From the IMG/VR virus record IMGVR_UViG_3300021600_000003, positions 19,249-83,248 of that record: 64,000 bases of DNA, one strand, 5' to 3'. The stretch is from a virus. Taxonomy: Duplodnaviria > Heunggongvirae > Uroviricota > Caudoviricetes. The notes beneath the pieces are model-generated. The model saw only the letters and a list, made by a program, of their open reading frames with translations. It did no database searches and had not been told where the DNA came from. How positions within the stretch are numbered: position 1 is the first letter of the stretch; each line of letters opens with the position of its first letter. This document shows, piece by piece, positions 2,719-40,241 of the stretch. The translations under genes and the position numbers were made by a program.

Positions 2719-5700
2719 TTATATTTTACAATTTAATGGATCAATTTCATTATCTTTTACATCATCAAGCATAAAGTCATTTTTACCATCTAATTTAACA
2801 CTTTGCTCCTTTGCTAATCTATTCATAAAATGAGTAATATTTGTATTACCTAATTTACTATATAGTTTTCCTGTATGAGATTTTTGATAAGGTAGTCCCG
2901 GACGATCTTTCTTCTTTTTCTGATATAAATCACTTTCATGAACTCCATATTGTTCACTTGTTTCATCTGGTGCAGCAGCTATTTCATTATTAATAATAAC
3001 AGGATTATTCCATTTTAAGTCAGGATTCATATCCTTAAACATCTTTTCAAATTGTTTAAGATAATTTGTAATAACTTCATTAGTTGCTGCTTCTGTAGTC
3101 TCTCCATCTTTAAAAGAAGCTCCTTCTTTAAGGAAACGATTAAAGTTATTAATAGATGTTTCTACTACATTTTTGATAATCATAGGAGGCACCAAGTAAG
3201 AGAATGAACCTTTATTTCTCTCTAGATGAGAAGATTGTGTAAGCAGGTAATATCCTAGTACGTTAAATATCTGACGTATTTCTTTTACATTTGCTGAATC
3301 TTTATAGAAGTCTAGTCTATCTTGGTTCTGTCTAAGTTTAGCCTCAATAGTAGGAAAGCTAGATATATCAAACATTACTAACTTCTCAAAGTTATCTCTA
3401 AGAACTGTTTCTTCAGCTTCTCTATCTTTGGGATTTGGAGATAGATTAAAGGTTATATAGTTTTGAGGTAAAGCATTTAATACATCTTTAAAATCTGGAA
3501 CACCATCTTTCATAGGATCAATACCATGTTCTGATTTAGTATCAATACTTTGTATAAGAGGTATTTCTCTTAACTCTGAGTACTTTGAAGTAAGAATATC
3601 CAACTGAGATGATAATAAACTTTTACTATATAAAGCTCCAATCTTTTCATCTTCAGATAAATTATCTACCTTAGAAAGAAACTCTTTAGCAAAGGCTTTA
3701 TAACTATCAGTACTCTCAACCAAAGGTCTAAGTAAAGGAGATATATCATATTCAAAAAACTCATAAAGTTTATTAGCATTCTCTCCATCCTTATAGATAA
3801 AGAAGTTAAGATATGTAGAATATATAAAATCAGATATTACTCTCATCTCTACCTTTCTTCTATCCTCTGGAGTACCAAATGTCTGCCATACTATATTCTG
3901 TAATACATTTTGGAATTCTTTAACAAAGAATTTGTTATCATTTATTAATATATTTGGAAATGCATTTGATAACATATTTTTAACAGTCTCATCATTATAG
4001 AAAGGAGTTACCATACTTTCATCTTGAATCTTATTTTCAAATTCAGGGTTTGACATACCTGATACTTGACGTGCTTGTTTTAAAGCTTCTGCATATGAAA
4101 TAGCAGATAAACTATTAACTTTTGTTGAGTTTCTTGATAATCCCTTAATAAATAATAAGTAGAACATATCACCATCAGCCAATACTGTTCCATAATAAGA
4201 AGCTATATCCTTAGCCATATCAGTATAAGATGGATTCTCTCTAAGAAACTGTTCCATATTTCTTTTATACTTTGGTGCATTACGCTGGAATTCTCCATAC
4301 TTTTCAGTAAAATCTGCTAAATCTTTTTCAGAAAAAGATAAGTGTTTATCACCTAAATAGTTCTGAGATGCTGGACCTGCAGCAAACATATATTGATTAA
4401 TACTAGTTTTTCCATTAGTTTCTTCATTCTTAACTCGATACTTTCCCCATCCCGGAAAACCAGTTTTAGCATCCGATATTGGAAATATTTCACTACCTGA
4501 CCATTTCTGAACAGAAGATACTAATGCATGTTTTGGACGAGCATCTGTACCTAATTTATCTAATTCATTTTGTACGTCTTGTACAACAGGATTATTTAAG
4601 AATAAAATTGTTCTTTCTAAAGGAACTCCTTGTGCCATTAACCATATCATTGGTTTAACATTTAACCAAGTTATTCCAAGAGAAGGAAATATATCAGCAT
4701 TTTTAAATAAGTCTAATAGAGAAGATACTTCTGCTGATAAGTCTTTTGTAGTTCTGTCCCCATTCTCATTAAATACTGATATTTTAATACCCTTACTTGT
4801 ATCTTTATTATACAATAAAGGAGTATGTACAAAACGTTTATATGTTTTTTCTTTATTGTTCTTTACTTCTTCAAGTAGATTTATACCTGTATCTATTCTC
4901 TTAAGTAATGCATTAAGTGGACCAGCACGATATTCTCTCTGAATAGTTAATCCTGATATCTCTAATAAAGGAAGCATAGAACGGAAACGTACTAGAGAAC
5001 CTAAAATAGAACGGATAGCAAAATTATTATGGTGATTTGCAATATTAGTTACATAACTCATTGCCTCTAGAGAGGTAAGTTGTCTACCTAATTCTACTGG
5101 ACTTCCTGTTTTTCTCTCAAGATTTTCTTCTGCTAACTTCTTAATCTTAGCTATAGAGTCTGTTTCTGTAAGAAAATCATAGTTCTCAGGAGCTTCCATG
5201 AACTCTAATATTGATGATACTATATCATTAGTTACACCTTTAATATAATTATCTCTTTTACTTTCCATCTCATTTAATTCCTTCATTAAAGGAGATGAGA
5301 TTCTTTTACCTTTATTCAAATCAACAATTAAAGAAGATACTGCATCTACGATATCATTAAATTCTCCTTTTTTTCGTAACTTAAATAAAGTAGATTTAGG
5401 ATCTATAAATCCTGCAACTGTACGATATCCATCCTCTTCAACAATAGTTAAATCTCTATCTAAATCACTAACTGTCTTACCTTTTAGTGCATATACCTCA
5501 TTCTCTAAAAATTCTTTCTTTATAGAATTTAATTGTTCATCATCTGTTGATGTATTTTTAGCTAATAAGAATGATTTTTCTGTACCAATTTTAGTAGATA
5601 ATTCTTCTATCTTATTTGTAATATCACTATATTGTTCAGTAGGACGCTTAATTATACGACCTAAACTATTTAGATACCTGAATGATGCAGTTACTGTATC

Positions 5701-17260: not shown

Positions 17261-19825
17261 TTATTGAGGTTTGGCTGGGTCAGTAAATGATAATACTAAT
17301 TGTTCTGGGTCAGTAAATGTATTATAATTAGTATCCCAGCTTCCATCTTTTAGTTGAACAGAAGGCATTAAACTTACTTGTCCATTAGATTTAACAGCAA
17401 TTACTTTTACATTTGCTCCAAATGGAGTAGTAAAACTATAAGAGGAGTAAGGAAACATTGTTCCATCAGGATTACTAACATCCTCAGATGTCATATAAGA
17501 TTTTTTTGAAAACTGTAATTGTCTTTCCATTAATGTTTTAAAATCTCTTATTTTATTTATCTGTGATTTTTGTTGTGGAGTAGGTAAGTTAGGAATATCA
17601 CGAAATGTATATGGTAACATAATAGCTTTTTTACCTCCCCAATCTACTTCAGTAGCACCTGAATTATATGTTTTAGCATTAGCTAGTACTGTTTGATCAC
17701 CCCATACATCATCACCAGTAGCACTAGTAGGGATAACTATTAGATTTTGACCATTAATATCATGACCTAATAACTTATAACCCTTTTTACCAGCTTCTCC
17801 ACCCTGTACACCTAATGCATTCTTTATAGCCATATCTACAGCCATATTCTTTTTAGGATCTACACGAGGTGCTACATATCTTTCAGCCTGATAATATGTC
17901 TTCCTATATAAATCATCTTTTGCATTCTGCATTCCTGTTACTAGTTCACCATTCCTTCTAAAGAATTCATTTAATTGTTTAATATCAGAAGATGGAGCTG
18001 TTTGTTGTTCACTAAAGAATTTACTTCCAAATAATCCAGATCCTCCATCATCATAAACTTTACCATTAATAGTATAACTATATCTTTCATGTTTAGATAT
18101 ACTTGTATTAGAATTATCTCTAACTCTTTGAATATCATTTTGTCTAATATTTGCTAATGCATCTCCAGTAATAACTGTACCATCTGATAAAGTAATTACT
18201 GTCTTTTTTAATTCTGCAGCTTGACTAGAAAATTGATTATTAACAACAGCATCAATAGCTTTTTGTTTTAAATCATGTCCTGCAACTTCTTCTTTTGCAT
18301 TATTATAACTTGTTATTAACTCAGTAAATTGTCTATCTCTGTTTTCTTTTGGAAGTTTACTTTGATTATTAACATAGTTTAGTAAGAAATTACTCCATCC
18401 AAGTTTATCAATTTGTTTTTGTTGATTAGGATCTTTTGCTAAGATATAATCATGTAAACTATTAAATGAGTTTGTAAATACATCATGTGCAACTTTTTGT
18501 TCCAATCCAGCTTGAACAGATCCATAATTCTGTCCTGTATCTATACCTTCTGTAACTGTAGGATTAATAGTTTGTAATTTATTACCAGCTATTTCTCCAG
18601 ATTGTTGTTTTAAATCTAAATCATATAGATATTTTTGTTTTAATTCATCCTTTCTATAATCATGCTCTCTCTGTTGAGCATAAGCTTTTTCAATTGCATT
18701 AAATTGTGCAATTCCTGCTGCATTAGCTGTTAATTTATTAGTATATTTATCACTCTTAAATGCTTCACCTAGATCCATATATTGTTTAGACATATAAATA
18801 CCAGCAGCTATTTGATTAAAGTTTTCTTTAATATATTGGTCAGGGTTATTACCAACCATATTTATATATTCTTTTTGCCTGTCGTCTAAATTTTTCTGTA
18901 GGGTAGGAAGCATATCCTGTAACTTCTTTATAGTAGCTTTATTATCTTCTGTTGGGTTTTGGATATCTTTAAGAGCAGCCAATTTACCACTTAAAGAATC
19001 TAATGCAGTTTGTTGTGGACCTATTGCATATGCATGATGATCAGTAACTAATAAATGAGGATTCATTTTATAGTATGCCCAGCCATCTATTCCCATTTGT
19101 TCTTTAGCTTTATCTGATAAACCTTCCATAAAACAGTTACCTGTTTCACCTGCTGAAGCTCCTGATTTAGAACTTTCATTAAAATACATATAATTAGAAG
19201 CTACATCTTGCCCTTCTGTAGCTGTTCCTTTACAATGTTTTAAAATGCTATCGTATTCCTGTTGAGGATTATAATATGGACTATATTGTTTTCTACCTAA
19301 TTTACCATATAAACCTTTTAATAATTCTGGATCTCTTGCTGTTTTTGGATTAAACTCTTCAAATCCATCTAATGCATATGCTAAATTTCTTTGTGTATAT
19401 CCTTCACCTTCTGGACCTGTAGATGATAATTTAGTTTTTCTATATCCATTAGCATCACTATAAATACCCTGCATTGTTTTGGTTAATTCACTATCATATA
19501 ATAATGCTTGATCACTCAAGAGTGGTTTGAACAAGTTAAATCCTTGTCTTTGTACAGAAGGATCTCCTAAATCCATAGTAGATAGTTTGGATAATTGCTT
19601 TTGTGCATCCTCCATATACTGTTTCCTAACTTCTTTATTAGAATCTAGTGTTAATGGCATATCTAGTATGTTATCATAGATATGTTTTACACGAGCAGCT
19701 CCTGCATCCCAGAAAGCATTCTGGGCAGAGATACCTTTAAAGATATCATTAATAGGCAACTCATAAGGTCTGAAGTTACTTACGGCTGCATAATCATTAT
19801 TACTATATGGTGATGTTGATGGCAT
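17261..19825 (-). CDS. virion structural protein, 854 aa
   Basis: ORF track entry. A promoter-like TAAATTTG element lies 5 nt upstream of its ATG. Confidence 0.8.
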   Translation of the reverse strand: MPSTSPYSNNDYAAVSNFRPYELPINDIFKGISAQNAFWDAGAARVKHIYDNILDMPLTLDSNKEVRKQYMEDAQKQLSKLSTMDLGDPSVQRQGFNLFKPLLSDQALLYDSELTKTMQGIYSDANGYRKTKLSSTGPEGEGYTQRNLAYALDGFEEFNPKTARDPELLKGLYGKLGRKQYSPYYNPQQEYDSILKHCKGTATEGQDVASNYMYFNESSKSGASAGETGNCFMEGLSDKAKEQMGIDGWAYYKMNPHLLVTDHHAYAIGPQQTALDSLSGKLAALKDIQNPTEDNKATIKKLQDMLPTLQKNLDDRQKEYINMVGNNPDQYIKENFNQIAAGIYMSKQYMDLGEAFKSDKYTNKLTANAAGIAQFNAIEKAYAQQREHDYRKDELKQKYLYDLDLKQQSGEIAGNKLQTINPTVTEGIDTGQNYGSVQAGLEQKVAHDVFTNSFNSLHDYILAKDPNQQKQIDKLGWSNFLLNYVNNQSKLPKENRDRQFTELITSYNNAKEEVAGHDLKQKAIDAVVNNQFSSQAAELKKTVITLSDGTVITGDALANIRQNDIQRVRDNSNTSISKHERYSYTINGKVYDDGGSGLFGSKFFSEQQTAPSSDIKQLNEFFRRNGELVTGMQNAKDDLYRKTYYQAERYVAPRVDPKKNMAVDMAIKNALGVQGGEAGKKGYKLLGHDINGQNLIVIPTSATGDDVWGDQTVLANAKTYNSGATEVDWGGKKAIMLPYTFRDIPNLPTPQQKSQINKIRDFKTLMERQLQFSKKSYMTSEDVSNPDGTMFPYSSYSFTTPFGANVKVIAVKSNGQVSLMPSVQLKDGSWDTNYNTFTDPEQLVLSFTDPAKPQ

Positions 19826-34775: not shown

Positions 34776-35618
34776 TCAGGGTTTATACCTGAATTTCTTT
34801 ATTGGACAGTATTCTTGTAGCCTATTATAGACTTTTTCAAGTAAAATTACGTCTTCTTTGCAATAATCTACCATTAAAGTCATGGATTTATTGTCATTAT
34901 ATAGAAGAATTTGTTTCCACATATCATAATCTGTCTTAACCTTTCCACCATATCCTAGGAATTTACCCATATAATCTAACCTATTAGTATTAAAACGGAA
35001 ACTTTGACGTGCCATCTTAAGGGTATCAATACTATTAAATTTAGGACTGATAGGAATATTATGATATATACATCTGGTTCTCAACCACTTAATATCAAAG
35101 TTGTCACCATTTTGTGCTATAATCTCGTCAGCAGAATCTGCTATCTTAGCAAATTGCTGAATCATTTTCTTGTCACAACCTTTATCCCACTTGAGAGAAT
35201 AAACTGTACTTTCTCCTGCCCATTTCCAGCAGATACATATGATTGCTCTTTCTTGTACAATACTATCATGACTAATACTTATCTTATTACCTACTCCCCA
35301 TGACATTACTAAATCAGGACTAACTTCTATATCAAAGAATAGTTTTGTCTTAGGACGACTCTTTTGCTCCATGATACGGTTATACATATCAAGTACATCC
35401 GATTCTTCTTTGGAGGCTATGTAAGTAGATGCTGCACGTAAAGTACTCTGTACTTCCCTTATTAGGTCAAGTTCTTTTGTTACCTCTGCATGCGTTTTTT
35501 TAATATTTGAGTGGGGATGTGTACTCCATAAAGCTCTTGCTACTAGTGTAGGTGATTTCTTAATGTAGCCTTTTTTAGAGAGAAGGAAATTCTTAATTTG
35601 TGCTCTTGTAATATTCAT
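34776..35618 (-). CDS. DEDDy-type 3'-5' exonuclease (DnaQ-like fold), 280 aa
   Basis: Exo I FFDIEV, Exo II IAQNGDNFDIKWL and Exo III YCKEDVILLEKVY motifs are present in the canonical order. Confidence 0.75.
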   Translation of the reverse strand: MNITRAQIKNFLLSKKGYIKKSPTLVARALWSTHPHSNIKKTHAEVTKELDLIREVQSTLRAASTYIASKEESDVLDMYNRIMEQKSRPKTKLFFDIEVSPDLVMSWGVGNKISISHDSIVQERAIICICWKWAGESTVYSLKWDKGCDKKMIQQFAKIADSADEIIAQNGDNFDIKWLRTRCIYHNIPISPKFNSIDTLKMARQSFRFNTNRLDYMGKFLGYGGKVKTDYDMWKQILLYNDNKSMTLMVDYCKEDVILLEKVYNRLQEYCPIKKFRYKP

Positions 35619-35868: not shown

Positions 35869-36002
35869 ATGTACAGCGAAAATCAGCGATTTCCTAATAT
35901 TTAATGTTAAGAAATTGTTAAGAGTGGGATGGAGGGTTCTCGAAACCCATGCACCTACTTTTTACAGACGTTGTGACTTGCCCTGAGTATCATCCCGAGT
36001 TG

Positions 36003-36085
36003 CGGAGAGAATGGGACTCGAACCCACAAAGCTTTTACACCCGACAGTTTAGCAAACTGCTCCTATACCATTAAGGGACCTCTCC
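36003..36085 (-). tRNA. tRNA-Ser(GCT)
   Basis: Hand-folded cloverleaf: acceptor GGAGAGG/TCTCTCC, anticodon loop TTGCTAA, long variable arm, T-loop TTCGAGT. Confidence 0.8.
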
Positions 36086-36090
36086 AAGTG

Positions 36091-36178
36091 CGGTAAGGGT
36101 GGGATTCGAACCCACGGGACTTTTACATCACACAAGTTTTCAAGACTAGGCTCTTTTGACCACTTGAGTACCCTTCCT
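36091..36178 (-). tRNA. tRNA-Ser(TGA)
   Basis: Hand-folded: anticodon loop CTTGAAA, long variable arm, T-arm GTGGG-TTCGAAT-CCCAC. One A-A mismatch in the acceptor stem. Confidence 0.65.
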
Positions 36179-36304
36179 TATTTAAAATACTGACGTTCTC
36201 CTAGAAGATAAATCTTTGCTAGAAAGAAATACTTCACTCTTCTTTTTGACTGCCTTTTTCGAATAAATTTTCGAATAGCTTGTCTTTTTGTTAATTTAAT
36301 CATG

Positions 36305-36378
36305 TGTCCAAGACGGGACTCGAACCCGTAAAATCCAGATTTTAAGTCTGACATGTATTCCAGTTCCATCACAAGGAC
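36305..36378 (-). tRNA. tRNA with anticodon TAA (Leu by anticodon) but a class I, short-variable-arm structure; possibly atypical or a pseudogene
   Basis: Anticodon arm TCAGA-CTTAAAA-TCTGG and T-arm ACGGG-TTCGAGT-CCCGT. The acceptor stem has two U-U mismatches. 74 nt. Confidence 0.5.
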
Positions 36379-36383
36379 GTTAG

Positions 36384-36470
36384 TGAGGAGTGAGAGATTC
36401 GAACTCTCATGCTACTATTATTTCGCCTCGGTTTCTAAAACCGAGTTGTCTACCGTTCCAGCAACTCCCC
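36384..36470 (-). tRNA. tRNA-Leu(TAG)
   Basis: Acceptor GGGGAGT/ACTCCTC, anticodon arm TCGGT-TTTAGAA-ACCGA, long variable arm, T-loop TTCGAAT. 87 nt. Confidence 0.75.
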
Positions 36471-36948
36471 GTCTGTTTCTTGTTTGTTGGGCATGACAAT
36501 TAGGACATAAAATCTGTAGATTCCAAAGTCCATTATTGTAATGATTACTATCTTTATGGTCCAGTTCTAATACTACTGGGTCTCCCATCCATTCTGTTAT
36601 ACCACAGATTTCACATTGCTCTTTCTTCAATCCTTCCTTTATCAACTTCTTTTTAAGAGTGTGACTGTTTATAGTACTTCCATTGTAACAATAAGAAAGT
36701 ACAGGTTTTTTATTATGAGCTATTCTTCCTTTCGTTACTGACTTACCAAGGAAATGTGAAGTATCAATTTCAAAGTATCCAACTCTTTTCTTGATGTAAC
36801 ACTGAGCTCCTGTCATAGGTTTCACTCCTATATTTCTACATACATCAGCCCAAGTTTTAGAATTCTTTACAGCTTTTTCCAAGCTTTCTTTTGTGTGTTT
36901 ATTTCTCATTGGTATACATTTGATACCAATATACAACATATATGCCAA
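36418..36948 (-). CDS. HNH homing-type endonuclease, 176 aa
   Basis: CEICGITEW...LELDHKDSNHYNNGLWNLQILCPNCH HNH/zinc-finger motif. The 3' end of the ORF reads through the 5' half of tRNA-Leu(TAG). Confidence 0.8.
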   Translation of the reverse strand: MAYMLYIGIKCIPMRNKHTKESLEKAVKNSKTWADVCRNIGVKPMTGAQCYIKKRVGYFEIDTSHFLGKSVTKGRIAHNKKPVLSYCYNGSTINSHTLKKKLIKEGLKKEQCEICGITEWMGDPVVLELDHKDSNHYNNGLWNLQILCPNCHAQQTRNRRGVAGTVDNSVLETEAK

Positions 36949-37000
36949 TTTACCAAATCTTTTTTAAGACCTGCGTGTCTACCAATTTCACCATATCGCC

Positions 37001-37034
37001 AAAATAAGAAACCCCAGCTTCTTCAGGGCTGGGG
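37001..37034 (-). terminator. intrinsic terminator between promoter P2/micro-ORF and the HNH gene
   Basis: Minus-strand RNA forms ccccagc-(9-nt loop)-gcugggg, followed by UUUCUUAUUUU. Confidence 0.55.
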
Positions 37035-37067
37035 TTTCGAGGAATAATCCTCTTTCAAGTGGTATTT

Positions 37068-37133
37068 TTACATACCATACCCAGCTCGATTACTCAAGAG
37101 TGATAAACTGGAATATGATAAATATTGCTTCAT
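37068..37133 (-). CDS. leaderless micro-ORF, 21 aa (MKQYLSYSSLSLLSNRAGYGM), between promoter P2 and an intrinsic terminator; may be a small-RNA gene instead
   Basis: ATG 8 nt after the -7 element TATATTTG. TAA stop at 37068-37070. A terminator hairpin follows at 37001-37034. Confidence 0.25.
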   Translation of the reverse strand: MKQYLSYSSLSLLSNRAGYGM

Positions 37134-37140
37134 TAGAAAA

Positions 37141-37176
37141 CAAATATACGAATAATATTTTAATCTACCAAATTTA
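37141..37176 (-). promoter_or_regulatory. Bacteroides-type promoter P2, near-identical copy of P1
   Basis: Minus-strand read TAAATTTGgtagattaaaatattattcgTATATTTG. Confidence 0.6.
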
Positions 37177-37374
37177 TTTTTCATCTGGTAAGTTTATGAT
37201 TTCAAGACCTTTCTTTCTCATAGCCTCACAAAATAGGTCAAATCCACCCTGCCAAGTTATTACCTTAATAGTTCTTTCTGGAGGATTAGTATAGAAAGCA
37301 TCTTTGACTGCCTTCTCAATCTCATCAAGAGTTATTGGTTTATTCTCCATTTGTAAGTTTTTGTTTGACATCAT
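37174..37374 (-). CDS. hypothetical small protein, 66 aa
   Basis: ORF track entry. One of three partly overlapping small minus ORFs between the tRNA blocks. Confidence 0.3.
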   Translation of the reverse strand: MMSNKNLQMENKPITLDEIEKAVKDAFYTNPPERTIKVITWQGGFDLFCEAMRKKGLEIINLPDEK

Positions 37375-37591
37375 GAATCATTGGTCCTAACTTTTCTCCA
37401 TTCTCATTTACACGTACTCCATGTACGAAATGGGTTTTACCTTGTTTATAGGCTCTTAAGTGTTTGTTATGGAAATTTCTACCATCTCTTCCTTCTTTCT
37501 CGAGAATCTCTCTATAGTTATCAGATGTTACTAACAATCCAAGAAATTCTCTGTTTGTCTTTGATTTCCCAAGTGCATTTTTCTGGGTCAT
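37340..37591 (-). CDS. hypothetical small basic protein, 83 aa
   Basis: ORF track entry. Same orientation as the surrounding genes. Confidence 0.3.
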   Translation of the reverse strand: MTQKNALGKSKTNREFLGLLVTSDNYREILEKEGRDGRNFHNKHLRAYKQGKTHFVHGVRVNENGEKLGPMIHDVKQKLTNGE

Positions 37592-37724
37592 TATACTTTA
37601 TTTTACTACGTCTATTAAAATTTCTCAAGTAACGTAAATATCTACGCTCTTGAGGTGATAAATTTGCTATCATATCACAAATATAATAACAATTTATATA
37701 GAATCCAAATTTATTTTTGTACAC
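37521..37724 (-). CDS. hypothetical small protein, 67 aa
   Basis: ORF track entry. Confidence 0.3.
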   Translation of the reverse strand: MYKNKFGFYINCYYICDMIANLSPQERRYLRYLRNFNRRSKIKYNDPEKCTWEIKDKQRISWIVSNI

Positions 37725-37744
37725 CTAGAAGGATTTGAACTTTG

Positions 37745-37820
37745 TACCCTATGAAGGACTCGAACCCTCAAAATCTCCTAATTCGTATTCAGGTGCTTTA
37801 TCCAATTTAGCTAATAGGGC
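37745..37820 (-). tRNA. tRNA-Arg(ACG)
   Basis: Acceptor GCCCTAT/ATAGGGT, D-stem GCT/AGC, anticodon arm CCTGA-ATACGAA-TTAGG. Confidence 0.75.
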
Positions 37821-37825
37821 ATGTG

Positions 37826-37898
37826 GGTGACTAAGGGGAATCGAACCCCCATTTGTAAGCTTCACAGACTTTTGCTTTACCGTTAAGCTATAGCCACC
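37826..37898 (-). tRNA. tRNA-His(GTG) with an encoded G-1
   Basis: Anticodon loop CTGTGAA, discriminator C. An extra 5' G (plus-strand c at 37898) pairs with C73. Confidence 0.75.
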
Positions 37899-37900
37899 AG

Positions 37901-37971
37901 TTTCCTTGTCAGGGGTCGAACCTAAGATAACAGAGTCAAAGTCTGTTGTGTTACCATTACACTACAAGGAA
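37901..37971 (-). tRNA. tRNA-Gln(TTG)
   Basis: Perfect acceptor TTCCTTG/CAAGGAA, D-stem GTGT/ACAC, anticodon arm ACAGA-CTTTGAC-TCTGT. Confidence 0.75.
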
Positions 37972-37976
37972 ATATG

Positions 37977-38049
37977 CACGTATGAGAGGACTCGAACCCC
38001 TGACGCTTGGTTTTGGAAACCAACGCTCTACCAACTGAGCTACACACGC
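37977..38049 (-). tRNA. tRNA-Trp(CCA)
   Basis: D-arm GCTC-AGTTGGTA-GAGC, anticodon arm TTGGT-TTCCAAA-ACCAA, T-loop TTCGAGT. Confidence 0.8.
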
Positions 38050-38055
38050 ATGATG

Positions 38056-38128
38056 TGGTACAAAGTGGTATCGAACCACTATCTCAGGATTTTCAGTCCT
38101 TCGCATAGACCATCTTTGCTATTGTACC
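38056..38128 (-). tRNA. tRNA-Phe(GAA)
   Basis: Perfect acceptor GGTACAA/TTGTACC, anticodon loop CTGAAAA, T-arm AGTGG-TTCGATA-CCACT. Confidence 0.75.
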
Positions 38129-38133
38129 TTTAG

Positions 38134-38208
38134 AGATCAGTAAGAGATTCGAACTCTTGATTTTACAGTTTTGCAGACTGTTGCCTTTGACCACTCAGCC
38201 AACTGATC
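38134..38208 (-). tRNA. tRNA-Cys(GCA)
   Basis: Perfect acceptor GATCAGT/ACTGATC, anticodon arm ACAGT-CTGCAAA-ACTGT, T-arm AAGAG-TTCGAAT-CTCTT. Confidence 0.75.
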
Positions 38209-38213
38209 ATTTG

Positions 38214-38285
38214 AGCCACATGAAGGATTCGAACCATCACCCTCTGATTACAAAACAGAATAGCTACCGTTACTATTAATGTGGC
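38214..38285 (-). tRNA. tRNA-Thr(TGT) (alternative fold gives GTA/Tyr)
   Basis: Perfect acceptor GCCACAT/ATGTGGC and D-stem ATAG/CTAT. The anticodon stem is imperfect; the best fold has loop TTTGTAA. Confidence 0.55.
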
Positions 38286-38291
38286 ATTATG

Positions 38292-38365
38292 TCTAGATGG
38301 CAAGATTCGAACTTGCGACCCCTTGCTCCCAAAGCAAGTGTTCTACCTGACTGAACTACATCTAG
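38292..38365 (-). tRNA. tRNA-Pro(TGG)
   Basis: Perfect acceptor CTAGATG/CATCTAG, D-stem GTTC/GAAC, anticodon arm CTTGC-TTTGGGA-GCAAG, T-arm GCAAG-TTCGAAT-CTTGC. Confidence 0.8.
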
Positions 38366-38396
38366 ATAAAAGAAAACCCCCTAGTTTCCTAGAGGG
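38366..38396 (-). terminator. intrinsic terminator between promoter P1/micro-ORF and tRNA-Pro
   Basis: Minus-strand RNA forms cccucuag-GAAA-cuaggggg (8 bp including one G-U, GNRA loop), followed by UUUUCUUUUAU. The mismatch would be C-A on the plus strand, so the structure is minus-specific. Confidence 0.6.
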
Positions 38397-38505
38397 TCTT
38401 CATATAGAACTGCACGAAAATCGTTTAGTTACGTATACAGAACTCCCTTAACAGTTGTACACTGTGTAAAGGTCGGCCATGTATGACGTTGCACTTTTTT
38501 CATAA

Positions 38506-38577
38506 TTATTTTTTAACTGGTGGAACAGGTTTTTTACCTCCACATCCACAACCATATGATGTATGAATAACTTTCAT
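38506..38577 (-). CDS. leaderless micro-ORF, 23 aa (MKVIHTSYGCGCGGKKPVPPVKK), between promoter P1 and an intrinsic terminator; may be a small-RNA gene instead
   Basis: ATG (38577-38575) lies 4 nt after the TATATTTG -7 element. TAA stop at 38506-38508. Confidence 0.3.
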   Translation of the reverse strand: MKVIHTSYGCGCGGKKPVPPVKK

Positions 38578-38581
38578 AAAA

Positions 38582-38617
38582 CAAATATACAACATTATTT
38601 TTAATTTTCCAAATTTA
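38582..38617 (-). promoter_or_regulatory. Bacteroides-type promoter P1 (TTTG-N20-TATATTTG)
   Basis: Minus-strand read TAAATTTGgaaaattaaaaataatgttgTATATTTG. Matches the Bacteroidota -33 TTTG / -7 TAnnTTTG consensus with a 20-nt spacer. Confidence 0.6.
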
Positions 38618-38641
38618 TTTTAAAAAAAGGGACCGTAGAAA

Positions 38642-39082
38642 CTAGTTGAAGTAAGGTAATATTTTAAGTACAAATTTCTCCAAGTCCATTTTAGTATCTT
38701 CAGCGTATAATTCTGTAAGCTTCTGAAGAGAAATAACTGCACCATTTCTTGAGATATTCCTTGAGTGATAAATATTCTCTTTTTGAGTACACCACTCTAG
38801 GTTTTCTACTGTGTTATTCGCTCTATTTCCATCCTTATGATTTATGTTAGGTTTACCATCTGGATTATCTAAGAAGGCAAATGCAACTATCCTGTGCACT
38901 AGAATAGTTGTTGCTTTACTGTTCTTCCATAACAAAGTCTTATAATAACCATTCTTGAGAGATAGTTTTAATATCTTCTCTTTCCGTTTTGATGGGGAAT
39001 TTCCCTGTAGACTTTTTAGTCTTCCTAAACTGCTTACCTGATAACGACCTTCAAAACCTACTATGTCTTTCCATATTTCCAT
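38642..39082 (-). CDS. HNH homing-type endonuclease, 146 aa
   Basis: INHKDGNRANNTVENLEWCTQKEN HNH motif. Confidence 0.8.
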   Translation of the reverse strand: MEIWKDIVGFEGRYQVSSLGRLKSLQGNSPSKRKEKILKLSLKNGYYKTLLWKNSKATTILVHRIVAFAFLDNPDGKPNINHKDGNRANNTVENLEWCTQKENIYHSRNISRNGAVISLQKLTELYAEDTKMDLEKFVLKILPYFN

Positions 39083-39114
39083 AATACAATATACGAAGAA
39101 TATTTGAGATTACC

Positions 39115-39144
39115 AAATAAAAAAGGTCCTCGAGAGCGAGGACC
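39115..39144 (-). terminator. intrinsic terminator after the fibre gene cluster
   Basis: Minus-strand RNA forms ggtcctcg-cucu-cgaggacc (8-bp perfect stem), followed by UUUUUUAUUU. Confidence 0.7.
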
Positions 39145-39153
39145 ATAAATAAC

Positions 39154-39167
39154 TCGGAGAACCAACA
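39154..39167. repeat. exact 14-mer, inverted copy d (CTCGGAGAACCAAC on the plus strand), intergenic next to terminator T1
   Basis: Reverse complement of the 14-mer. Followed by AACCGAG, which forms a local inverted repeat ctcgg...ccgag. Confidence 0.8.
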
Positions 39168-39176
39168 ACCGAGGTT

Positions 39177-40241
39177 TTAAATAGTTGGATAACTTACTGC
39201 ACCATCAAAATTAACTACAATAGTCTTTGATGTGGCTGTTGTGAAAGAAGATTGGAACTCTAATAAGATATTTTGAGTTGATTTCCTGATAATGTAGTTA
39301 TACATTTGACCTACACTTTCTATGTAAGTAATTGATTTTAAATCACTTGTACCTGCTTGTTCAGCTAAAGTCAAACAAGTTGTTGGGATATTTCCCATTG
39401 TAATAGTATATTTTCTATTTGCAGAAGTATTAGCTGCAAATGCTATAGTGTAAGATATAGAACCACGGAACTCTAGAGTACCATCAAAACGATAACGATA
39501 CTGAGGAGCACCTGATAAAAAGACAACATTAGCATTTCCTGTAGGAACTATAGTGATATCTCTCCATGTATTATCAAAACAAGCTCTTACTACCTGAATA
39601 GAAGGATTTGTTGATACAATATATGGATTAATTAATGTGCCTGTTCCTGTTACTGTAACTCCTGTACCAGCTATCACCTTGGTCTCTGAGCCATCTGGAG
39701 CAATACATGTAGACATTAATTTACCATCTGTTCCTATATATAAAGGATTACCTATATCTGTTGATAACAAAGTAACTGGAACTACATCAAATAGTATATC
39801 CTCATTTCCTGCTGGATTTTCTTTTGTTTTAGATAGGAAAATACCTGTCTTAAGCTTATCCCATAAGTATCCTGTTGTAGTATCTGCTGCAGATACCTTT
39901 GCATTTACATCTATAGGAACACCTCCTTGAACAGCATCAATTCTTATCTTCTCATCACAGCCAGTTCCTGTAACTGTAAGTGTAATATCTGTTCCTGCCT
40001 CTAACTTATCTATTAAGTATTTAGGGCATATATCACTACCATCAACAAGAACTTTACCTATTGAGCATATTTTATCATTAATCTTTGATAAAATAGTATC
40101 TCCGTCCTCAGCGTTAGAAACACCAAGACAAGATAAGTAAGTACCTGAGTACGTAGTACAACCAAAAGTATTTGGATTTATACATCCACAATCATCATGT
40201 TGACTACAAGGGTTGCATGGGTTATTATCTGTACAAGACAT
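39177..40241 (-). CDS. tail fibre/spike-like protein, 354 aa
   Basis: Gly/Thr-rich beta-type repeats (VTVTGTGT...). Adjacent to the paralogous fibre genes. Followed by a strong intrinsic terminator. Confidence 0.65.
   Translation of the reverse strand: MSCTDNNPCNPCSQHDDCGCINPNTFGCTTYSGTYLSCLGVSNAEDGDTILSKINDKICSIGKVLVDGSDICPKYLIDKLEAGTDITLTVTGTGCDEKIRIDAVQGGVPIDVNAKVSAADTTTGYLWDKLKTGIFLSKTKENPAGNEDILFDVVPVTLLSTDIGNPLYIGTDGKLMSTCIAPDGSETKVIAGTGVTVTGTGTLINPYIVSTNPSIQVVRACFDNTWRDITIVPTGNANVVFLSGAPQYRYRFDGTLEFRGSISYTIAFAANTSANRKYTITMGNIPTTCLTLAEQAGTSDLKSITYIESVGQMYNYIIRKSTQNILLEFQSSFTTATSKTIVVNFDGAVSYPTI

Follow-up and report, generated by a model that had tools for sequence, protein, structure and literature searches.

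Within the tRNA island of a crAss-like phage, blocks of tRNA genes are probably controlled by multivalent leader-peptide (ribosome-mediated) transcription attenuators, that is, by short open reading frames (ORFs) whose translation, as modelled here, would determine whether transcription terminates ahead of the block or continues into it. The DNA in question is a stretch of 64,000 nucleotides from a virus of the class Caudoviricetes (IMG/VR record IMGVR_UViG_3300021600_000003, positions 19,249 to 83,248), referred to below in its entirety as the window; the assignment to the crAss-like phages comes from a CrAss_Ring_2 Pfam match in a gene neighbouring the island, which occupies 35950-39160 on the minus strand and contains 12 tRNAs. 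The codons of the leader ORFs correspond to the tRNAs encoded directly downstream, the architecture around them is conserved among relatives, the leader RNAs have alternative pairings that depend, in silico, on the position of the ribosome, and elements of the same kind recur in unrelated phages. On the best reading of the sequence, attenuator A (38616-38366) would control the block that extends from tRNA-Pro to tRNA-Arg, and attenuator C (37175-37001) would have controlled a Leu/Ser block before the insertion of an HNH endonuclease gene. A preliminary description of this DNA had suggested attenuation of read-through into the tRNA array, a proposal that the present results strongly support, in a far more specific form.

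Among deposited phages, no close relative of this phage was found. Relatives of the same lineage, namely, three IMG/VR contigs and a few metagenome contigs, were recovered by protein-anchored scans, with flanking genes that are 66-87% identical to those of the window at the amino-acid level. The islands of these relatives are larger, with 17-26 tRNAs each, and all of them contain the same module: a promoter, a short ORF, a hairpin with a U-run and, after 6-10 nt, the first tRNA.

Leader ORFs and the tRNAs behind them

The window contains two such modules, denoted A and C after the classes into which the leaders of the lineage fall. The parts of module A are, in the order of transcription:

38582-38616, minus strand: promoter P1, AAATTTG-N20-TATATTTG, with TTTG at -33 and TATATTTG at -7 (predicted, Bacteroidota sigma-A type)
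38506-38577, minus strand: ORF1a, MKVIHTSYGCGCGGKKPVPPVKK, the micro-ORF of the preliminary description and the N-terminal module of the leader peptide
38429-38503, minus strand: sensor ORF A, MKKVQRHTWPTFTQCTTVKGVLYT, the second micro-ORF of the P1 transcript, with the core QRHTWPTFTQCTT
38440-38454, minus strand: region 2 of the putative attenuator A, which pairs with the sensor codons in the folded free RNA
38366-38401, minus strand: intrinsic terminator A, a 13-bp stem (38401-38389 with 38384-38372) and a U-run
37744-38365, minus strand: tRNA block A, namely, Pro(UGG), Thr(UGU), Cys(GCA), Phe(GAA), Trp(CCA), Gln(UUG), His(GUG) and Arg(ACG)

Module C is laid out in the same order:

37141-37175, minus strand: promoter P2, the same exact motif AAATTTG-N20-TATATTTG (predicted)
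37068-37133, minus strand: sensor ORF C, MKQYLSYSSLSLLSNRAGYGM, with the core YLSYSSLSLLS (codons 37124-37092), Leu, Ser and Tyr only
37080-37085, minus strand: region 2 of the putative attenuator C, GCUGGG within the final codons of the ORF, able to pair with CCCAGC in the 5' arm of the terminator
37001-37038, minus strand: intrinsic terminator C, a stem (37038-37028 with 37018-37008) and a U-run
36962-37000, minus strand: 5' half of a tRNA-Leu(UAA), 39 nt, which stops just past the anticodon loop
36002-36470, minus strand: tRNA block C, namely, Leu(UAG), a 75-nt tRNA with the anticodon UAA, Ser(UGA) and Ser(GCU)

The 23- and 21-codon ORFs of the preliminary description are found here as MKVIHTSYGCGCGGKKPVPPVKK (38577-38506) and MKQYLSYSSLSLLSNRAGYGM (37133-37068), and the strong terminators that it reported behind them are likewise present, as hairpins with U-runs at 38401-38366 and 37038-37001. 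It erred in singling out the first ORF after P1, given that the sensor is the second one, at 38503-38429. Sensor ORF A begins 2 nt past the stop codon of ORF1a, a spacing that suggests translational coupling between the two. Terminator A, which is conserved nearly base for base in the relatives L001 and L080, ends 6 nt ahead of tRNA-Pro, and no promoter lies between this terminator and the first tRNA, so that expression of the tRNAs from these promoters requires read-through.

The core of sensor A (codons 38491-38453) consists of 13 consecutive residues drawn exclusively from the eight amino acids of the downstream tRNAs, with all eight represented (8/8), and for every tRNA of block A, the sensor includes one or more strictly cognate codons. 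The core of sensor C is a run of 11 consecutive Leu, Ser and Tyr residues, the codons of which cover both Leu families (UUR and CUN) and both Ser families (UCN and AGY). Among the 297 small ORFs found in the six frames of the window, no other comes close: the 13-residue run of A is followed by one of 7 residues from the same amino-acid set, and the 11-residue run of C by one of 6. In the relatives, a third class, B, is associated with a block that starts with Lys. The cores of the three classes, together with the blocks that they precede, are as follows:

Class A, before Pro, Thr, Cys, Phe, Trp, Gln, His, Arg: window QRHTWPTFTQCTT; L001 RQWHTPTCTQCPF; L080 RQHTWFTCTQCPF; L085 QRTWHTCTQCPF; L004 QRTHTQWFTCPQCPCT
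Class C, before Leu(UAG), Leu(UAA), Ser(UGA), Ser(GCU), Tyr(GUA): window YLSYSSLSLLS; L004 LSYYSSLLSLLS; L001 SYYSSLSLL
Class B (not in the window), before Lys, Lys, Val, Arg, Asn, Met, Gly, Gly, Glu, Asp, Ile, Ile, Ala: L004 MIADNGDVRGIEKNG; L001 NMIVDRMIGANEK

Analytic p values for these correspondences are about 4e-7 for class A, about 1e-7 for class C and 3.5e-3 for class B. Across the 11 sensor ORFs of the three classes, the runs confined to the amino acids of the sensor's own block are 9-16 residues long, those confined to any other block do not exceed 5, and the coverage of the amino acids of the respective blocks is complete (8/8, 10/10 and 3/3). The window, which has no block B, also has no block-B sensor. 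We considered, and rejected, homology of the P2 leader with the leader of the Lys block of the relatives, which is a separate class (B); the true ortholog of the P2 leader is the Leu/Ser leader of L004 and L001.

The correspondence extends from amino acids to codons. In all six class-A sensors, Arg is encoded by CGN (CGT, CGC or CGA), and the downstream tRNA is Arg(ACG), even though AGA and AGG account for 69% of the Arg codons genome-wide; in the class-B sensors, Arg is encoded by AGA, and the downstream tRNA is Arg(UCU). Codons that are rare in the genome (TCC, 3%; CTC, 2%; TTG, 8%) are conserved in the class-C sensors. Within class B, the cores of L001 and L004 share 12 of 15 residues in composition, but only 5 of 15 positions are identical; retention of composition along with scrambling of order implies selection on which codons are present rather than on the peptide sequence.

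Such sensors are not confined to this lineage. We scanned 329 sequences, including 120 viral stretches chosen by the island promoter and 120 chosen by a generic tRNA D-arm pattern, for ATG-initiated ORFs of 8-70 codons that end at most 150 nt upstream of a tRNA, and scored how well each of the resulting 395 micro-ORFs matched the amino acids of the 2-16 tRNAs that come next, applying a Bonferroni correction. Eight hits reached p < 1e-4, compared to 0.3 expected and to a maximum of 2 in permutations in which the tRNA sets were swapped between loci. Outside the lineage of the window, five further elements were identified in four unrelated contigs:

L137: TMNLNMNMNTLTVVNNTL..IR, before a 16-tRNA array of Ile/Asn/Arg/Leu/Val/Thr/Met; p_adj = 2e-5
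L248: QQQYQPQPYP, before Tyr/His/Pro/Gln; p_adj = 8e-8
L256, first element: NKHKHFSKSSKWFSNKS, before an array that begins Lys/His/Phe/Trp; p_adj = 1.5e-6
L256, second element: core SSSRSSS, before Arg/Ser/Asn/Ile/Thr/Leu/Cys; p_adj = 5.7e-5
L124, weaker: FDF..EAAEADF, before Asp/Ala/Phe/Glu; p_adj = 3e-3

Each of the five has a hairpin with a U-run and a region 2 located 3' of the core, and each passes the folding switch test described below (P <= 0.02). The predicted promoter of the L248 element is of the sigma-70 type, TTGCAA-N17-TATAAT, about 10 nt before the ATG. One more candidate, in the GC-rich contig L224, lacks a U-run and was taken as a false positive. In L256, the minus strand at 3524-4335 contains a near-duplicate unit, Lys-His-Phe-Lys-Trp followed by Trp-Lys-His-Phe-Lys, which suggests a recent tandem amplification of a tRNA sub-block behind one sensor ORF.

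These observations bear on the alternative that treats the modules as ordinary small genes, for example, for Cys-rich metal-binding peptides, or as small RNAs, in either case insulated by terminators, with the match to the tRNAs being incidental or a by-product of codon adaptation; the preliminary description, too, had proposed small RNAs or micropeptide mRNAs. The class-A ORFs of the relatives are indeed Cys-rich (6-7 Cys residues with CxxC-like spacing) and conserved as ORFs, and the leaders are significantly structured (z = -3.75 for leader A and -4.72 for leader C relative to shuffles). The class-A ORF of the window, however, is down to one Cys and yet has kept the full checklist of eight amino acids, and three classes of leaders unrelated in sequence, along with the five elements in unrelated contigs, match their own arrays but not others. 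The conservation in related phages that had been proposed as a check on the peptides versus the RNA structure points in the same direction: the promoter-ORF-hairpin module is present in all relatives, whereas the order of residues in the class-B peptides is not conserved, which argues against a folded peptide or a sequence-specific small RNA. Generic codon adaptation cannot yield runs of 9-18 residues confined to the amino acids of one array, a restriction supported by the cross-block controls, the permutations and the matching of Arg, Leu and Ser at the isoacceptor level, and no Rfam family matches the modules. Altogether, this explanation appears quite improbable.

Alternative folds of the leader RNAs and the proposed switch

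The leaders have the layout expected of attenuators. The leader ORFs are 21-46 codons long and lie near the predicted transcription starts, and a GC-rich hairpin with a U-run is positioned 6-10 nt ahead of the first tRNA. The 11 leaders of the lineage share a fold in which region 1 (the sensor codons) pairs with region 2 (the 3' part of the ORF), followed by the terminator (3:4) and the U-run, and all 16 elements examined, including those in unrelated contigs, have the classical combination of 1:2, 2:3 and 3:4 pairings. When five class-A leaders are folded jointly, both helices appear in the consensus, with 6 compensated pairs, and class C shows a compensatory change between regions 2 and 3 (GCUGGG/CCCAGC in the window, GCUGGA/UCCAGC in L001).

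To represent the ribosome, the positions from -15 to +12 nt relative to the A-site codon were treated as its footprint, and the RNA was folded up to the point that precedes transcription of the 3' arm of the terminator, with dinucleotide shuffles of the leader serving as controls. When the ribosome occupies the sensor core, region 2 is predicted to pair with the 5' arm of the terminator, thus forming an antiterminator, in 11/11 leaders of the lineage, that of module A among them; the stabilisation amounts to 7-25 kcal/mol, compared to 1-6 kcal/mol in shuffles (p <= 0.05 in 10/11). Once the ribosome is at the stop codon, this pairing disappears or becomes much weaker, and the difference between the two states, that is, the switch, is significant at p < 0.05 in 9/11 leaders. 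The five elements from unrelated contigs behave similarly (antiterminator strength, p <= 0.05 in 4/5; switch, p < 0.05 in 5/5), so that, in total, the switch beats shuffles at p < 0.05 in 14/16 elements. In five elements, the equilibrium probability of the terminator falls to about 0-35%, and it does so only when the A-site is in the sensor core or just before it. In these models, then, the antiterminator and the terminator would be mutually exclusive, with the former freed by a stalled ribosome and masked by one at the stop codon.

These features can be accommodated in the following scheme. From a sigma-A type promoter, a leaderless or near-leaderless RNA would be made, and a ribosome would translate its short leader ORF, the core of which serves as a checklist with one to a few codons for each tRNA directly downstream. 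If all these codons are decoded fast, the ribosome would reach the stop codon and cover region 2, the terminator would form, and transcription would halt a few nucleotides short of the first tRNA. If decoding of any codon is slow because the charged cognate tRNA is scarce, conceivably as a result of a codon-usage mismatch or of cleavage or depletion of host tRNAs, which we infer as the physiological trigger, the ribosome would stall on region 1, leaving region 2 free to pair with the 5' arm of the terminator, and RNA polymerase would read into the tRNA block. More of those very tRNAs would then be produced, which amounts to a demand-driven feedback on the tRNA supply of the phage.

It is possible to accept that the checklist is translated but to propose that it acts otherwise, through decay of the leader RNA, processing by RNase P or RNase E, access of Rho, or a hairpin that serves as a protective 3' end. 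The placement of the hairpin 6-10 nt before the first tRNA is compatible with such a role, as cleavage by RNase P would leave a leader that ends in the hairpin, and in the two elements of the window, the terminator is thermodynamically dominant in every modelled state of the ribosome. Nevertheless, the U-run that follows the hairpin in every element is the signature of intrinsic termination, and in 16/16 elements, region 2 is located 3' of the sensor codons and is complementary to the 5' arm of the terminator far above the level in shuffles, an arrangement that only the antiterminator model requires. We therefore regard these other modes of action as unlikely, albeit not negligibly so.

Another possibility is that the codon run is not translated at all but rather pairs directly with tRNA anticodons, as a T-box-like leader with multiple specifiers. 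The logic of terminator and antiterminator is common to both systems, and the anticodons of the array tRNAs can base-pair with the triplets. These triplets, however, are always in one frame, within an ORF that starts at or near the predicted +1, and the stop codon is placed such that a terminating ribosome would cover region 2. There is no match to T-box or any other Rfam family and no T-box-like platform or discriminator, and thirteen adjacent specifiers have no structural precedent, all of which makes direct pairing extremely improbable. More specifically, no match was found to the Rfam families Thr_leader, His_leader, Leu_leader, Trp_leader or T-box, only tRNAs reached the gathering score, and a permissive Rfam search added only sub-threshold hits at the level of chance.

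Several points weigh against the attenuation scheme. Translation of the ORFs, the starts and ends of the transcripts, and the regulation along with its direction are inferred, and the evidence is computational; the covariation, moreover, is thin because only about 7 useful loci came out of the protein-anchored scans of relatives. Most tRNAs are represented by just one or two codons each, classical leaders mostly carry runs of the regulatory codon, and the stalling strength of a single codon is an assumption of the model. In the two elements of the window, the terminator has a probability of about 0.99 at equilibrium for any position of the ribosome, and the antiterminators are modest (7-9 kcal/mol), so that the switch would have to be kinetic. 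A ribosome that stalls on the last few sensor codons would itself mask region 2, given how close they are to it. The sensors of L003 and L004 keep Trp, but no tRNA-Trp was called there by ARAGORN, and sensor C of the window retains Tyr codons, yet no tRNA-Tyr was called in the window. HNH cassettes with their own promoters lie between the attenuator and the tRNAs in module C of the window and in module A of L003 and L004, where control would be partly bypassed. Sensor A of the window is a second cistron, and the scheme assigns no role to ORF1a. Leaderless mRNAs are rare in Bacteroidota hosts, with a share of 3.7-5.5% (PMC7366714, PMC9723704). Finally, many tRNA arrays lack ORFs of this kind according to the scanner, namely, those of T5, where the best p_adj for a micro-ORF matching the downstream tRNAs was 0.04, as well as crAss001, IAS virus, cr116_1, L062 and L172; these negative arrays imply that the feature is lineage-restricted and, by the same token, that the scanner does not fire indiscriminately.

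Promoters, HNH cassettes and the remainder of the island

The exact promoter motif occurs three times in the window, compared to 0.00 matches in dinucleotide shuffles. The preliminary description had correctly noted near-identical promoters of the Bacteroidota type at two sites (38582-38616 and 37141-37175), but a duplication is not the whole of it, given that a third copy, P3, was overlooked:

37678-37712, minus strand: promoter P3, third exact copy of the motif (predicted)

In all these predicted promoters, the -33 TTTG, the -7 TAnnTTTG and the spacing of about 19-21 nt agree with the Bacteroidota sigma-A consensus. Also as had been claimed, an ATG lies 4-8 nt after the -7 box: that of ORF1a follows P1 after 4 nt, for a predicted leaderless mRNA, and that of sensor ORF C follows P2 after 7 nt, for a predicted 5' untranslated region of about 3 nt, with an identical 7-nt gap in the L004 ortholog of P2. 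The leaderless or near-leaderless transcripts that had been deduced from this spacing are consistent with the map of transcription starts in Flavobacterium psychrophilum, where TAnnTTTG lies at -12 to -5 (PMC9723704), so that a 4-nt gap places the A of the AUG at +1. The island promoter is present 3-4 times in the island of each relative and, by our own tally for this lineage, the ATG comes exactly 4 nt after TATATTTG in about half of the distinct island promoters. Given the small share of leaderless mRNAs in the hosts cited above, such an arrangement is unusual for the phylum and looks like a product of selection. Degenerate copies of the motif precede both HNH genes of the island (about 39116-39088 and 36956-36928).

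P3, with an ATG 4 nt downstream, would drive three ordinary small ORFs (37673-37521, 37591-37340 and 37374-37174), none of which has a Pfam match. These ORFs occupy the position of block B (37141-37744 in the window, 3438-8590 in L001), a set of 13-15 tRNAs, from Lys to Ala, that, along with its sensor ORF, is present in all relatives and missing from the window.

Downstream of terminator C, the window contains an HNH cassette:

36418-36956, minus strand: HNH cassette, a degenerate promoter-like site (36956-36928) and the HNH ORF (36909-36418)

The end of the HNH ORF overlaps a complete tRNA-Leu(UAG), and its weak Pfam HNH match, at 20.3 bits (E = 6e-4), falls short of the 21.4-bit cut-off. 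An orthologous cassette is found in L004. In L001, where the HNH gene is absent, the class-C terminator abuts an intact tRNA-Leu(UAA), and the 39-nt half of this tRNA in the window is, on this comparison, a remnant of the original first tRNA of block C. In L003 and L004, HNH cassettes split tRNA-Pro and tRNA-Cys; the 5' fragments agree with the resident genes (22/22 for Cys), and behind the HNH gene lie intact but divergent copies of the tRNAs. Because the tRNA-Leu is intact in L001, which lacks the HNH gene, and split in the window, with the same pattern in L003 and L004, the predicted HNH genes are, in this comparative light, later insertions with putative promoters and replacement tRNAs of their own, and not targets of the attenuators.

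This history decides against the earlier proposal that terminator 2, that is, terminator C, attenuates expression of the HNH gene from P2. The HNH ORF does lie downstream of that terminator on the same strand, and read-through transcripts would contain it. However, the 5' half of tRNA-Leu(UAA) (37000-36962) intervenes between the two, a promoter-like site belonging to the HNH ORF itself is present, L001 has the orthologous leader and terminator directly next to an intact tRNA-Leu and lacks the HNH gene, and similar cassettes split tRNA-Pro and tRNA-Cys in L003 and L004, so that we consider attenuation of the HNH gene very improbable. The preliminary identification of the next genes after the two terminators thus holds for tRNA-Pro but not for HNH, which is preceded by the tRNA-Leu fragment.

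The HNH cassettes have the attributes of homing elements, namely, an ORF located inside a conserved tRNA gene and a presence or absence that differs among relatives, the endonuclease activity being predicted. The cassettes span 36304-37000 in the window and 3995-4640 and 4747-5481 in L003, with the tRNA split in or near the anticodon arm, and each combines its own copy of the island promoter with a divergent tRNA of the same specificity that either overlaps the HNH ORF at its 3' end or comes after it. It looks as though homing endonucleases target phage tRNA genes and bring along a presumably cleavage-resistant substitute. One member of such a cassette is a 74-75-nt tRNA with the anticodon UAA, which would read the Leu codons UUA and UUG (36304-36378 in the window, 9264-9337 in L004) and has a short variable arm, unlike a normal class II tRNA-Leu. 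A group I intron in tRNA-Leu was also considered and rejected, given that there is no intron hit, a matching 3' half is absent, and the L001 gene is uninterrupted; a free-standing HNH cassette that carries replacement tRNAs is favoured instead. A second homing-endonuclease gene, with NUMOD4 and HNH_3 domains (38642-39082), is located between the terminator of the structural gene (39144-39125) and P1, has its own degenerate promoter (in the region 39088-39160) with an ATG 4 nt after the box, and is present in L001 and L085 but absent from L003, L004 and L080.

The placement of the ORF1a module relative to the sensor varies: the two are fused in L001 and L085 and split in the window and L080, and the module lies upstream of the promoter in L003 and L004. 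ORF1a (MKVIHTSYGCGCGGKKPVPPVKK) contains a conserved YG(G)CGCG(G)K(K/P) module and is rich in Gly, Lys, Cys and Pro codons; tRNAs for Gly and Lys are members of block B, which the window has lost. A 12-codon ORF, MIEDVGVKNVQC, at 5676-5714 of L004 (also in L077, L082 and L083), lies 48 nt ahead of tRNA-Lys(CUU) and has 8 residues from the downstream tRNA set (p_adj about 0.1). This ORF could represent a remnant or, alternatively, an additional mini-sensor located behind an inserted gene.

Block C of L004 has an additional tRNA-Tyr(GUA). At the same position in the window, after tRNA-Ser(GCU), there is a tRNA-like stretch with a GTA triplet (35925-36001) that was called by neither ARAGORN nor Rfam and may be a decayed tRNA-Tyr, although sensor C still has three Tyr codons. 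In L001, a tRNA-Ser(UGA) and a tRNA-Tyr can be read by eye but are unconfirmed by Rfam and are not claimed here. The genome has a GC content of about 32%, and the island is flanked on its 5' side by the structural gene (39177-40241) and on its 3' side by a gene with RNase_H_2 and PolB-type exonuclease domain matches (34776-35618).

Relation to known systems and implications

The putative attenuators of the phage resemble those of the amino-acid operons, that is, the trp, his, leu, thr, pheA and ilvGMEDA leaders, in having a short ORF with regulatory codons, the set of 1:2, 2:3 and 3:4 hairpins, and a terminator before the first gene, as well as in the predicted logic, in which stalling on region 1 promotes the antiterminator, and region 2 is covered once the ribosome has reached the stop codon (leader-peptide attenuators are described in general terms in PMC1183508). 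The differences are equally clear. The genes that the phage elements would regulate are tRNA arrays, and not genes for biosynthetic enzymes or aminoacyl-tRNA synthetases; the leaders would sense 3-10 amino acids, usually with one or two codons each and with isoacceptor families distinguished; and the setting is that of phages, with several elements predicted to be leaderless. Sensing of more than one amino acid is itself familiar from the ilvGMEDA and thr leaders of enterobacteria.

Closer in their targets are pheST, with its pheM leader, and the T-box riboswitches, where the supply of a particular charged tRNA decides between terminator and antiterminator, and thereby the expression of a gene of the decoding apparatus, as proposed here for the phage elements. 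The pheM leader senses one amino acid and controls a synthetase, and T-boxes bind uncharged tRNA without translation and have a conserved T-box sequence; the phage elements, by contrast, have no T-box match, and their signal is inside an ORF. In Mycobacterium tuberculosis, Cys-rich small ORFs reportedly respond to cleavage of tRNA-Cys by the VapC4 toxin (Barth et al. 2021, PNAS), so that, as in the scheme proposed here, codon-enriched upstream ORFs are said to sense depletion of a specific tRNA and to alter downstream expression. That system is described as a cellular stress response that senses one tRNA species and acts on protein-coding genes, whereas downstream of the phage elements are the sensed tRNAs themselves, which would close the feedback loop. 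The tRNA regions of phages T4 and T5, with their small ORFs, stable RNAs and homing endonucleases (SegB and the F-Tfl HNH enzymes), are likewise clusters broken by promoters, terminators, ORFs and HNH genes, and the T5 annotation shows a similar mosaic; unlike the arrays described here, those of T5, crAss001, IAS virus and cr116_1 contain no tRNA-matching micro-ORF detectable by the scanner. In the full-text literature searched, which leaves most subscription journals outside, there is no report of leader-peptide control of tRNA genes.

The roles of phage tRNAs have been debated for decades, the candidate explanations being that they compensate for codon usage, replace host tRNAs that have been degraded, or evade anticodon nucleases (PMC10264068). 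The slow decoding that triggers the proposed switch could follow a strike by a host anticodon nuclease or another tRNA-depleting defence system, and, tentatively, one can envisage a closed-loop, demand-driven control of tRNA arrays in several unrelated phage lineages, with the leaders functioning as inducible counter-defence or codon-supply switches, each of which would show directly which tRNAs matter to the phage, although we regard this broader scenario as a possibility rather than an expectation. If the attenuation scheme is correct, leader-peptide attenuation would extend to RNA genes and to a multivalent design with one codon per tRNA, yielding a compact genetic part that reports the decoding capacity for chosen codons, along with a simple sequence signature for the annotation of such elements in viral metagenomes. 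It would follow, furthermore, that tRNA supply is limiting and actively managed during infection. The leader sequences would then predict which codons matter, and the long-standing question of the role of phage tRNAs would become testable.

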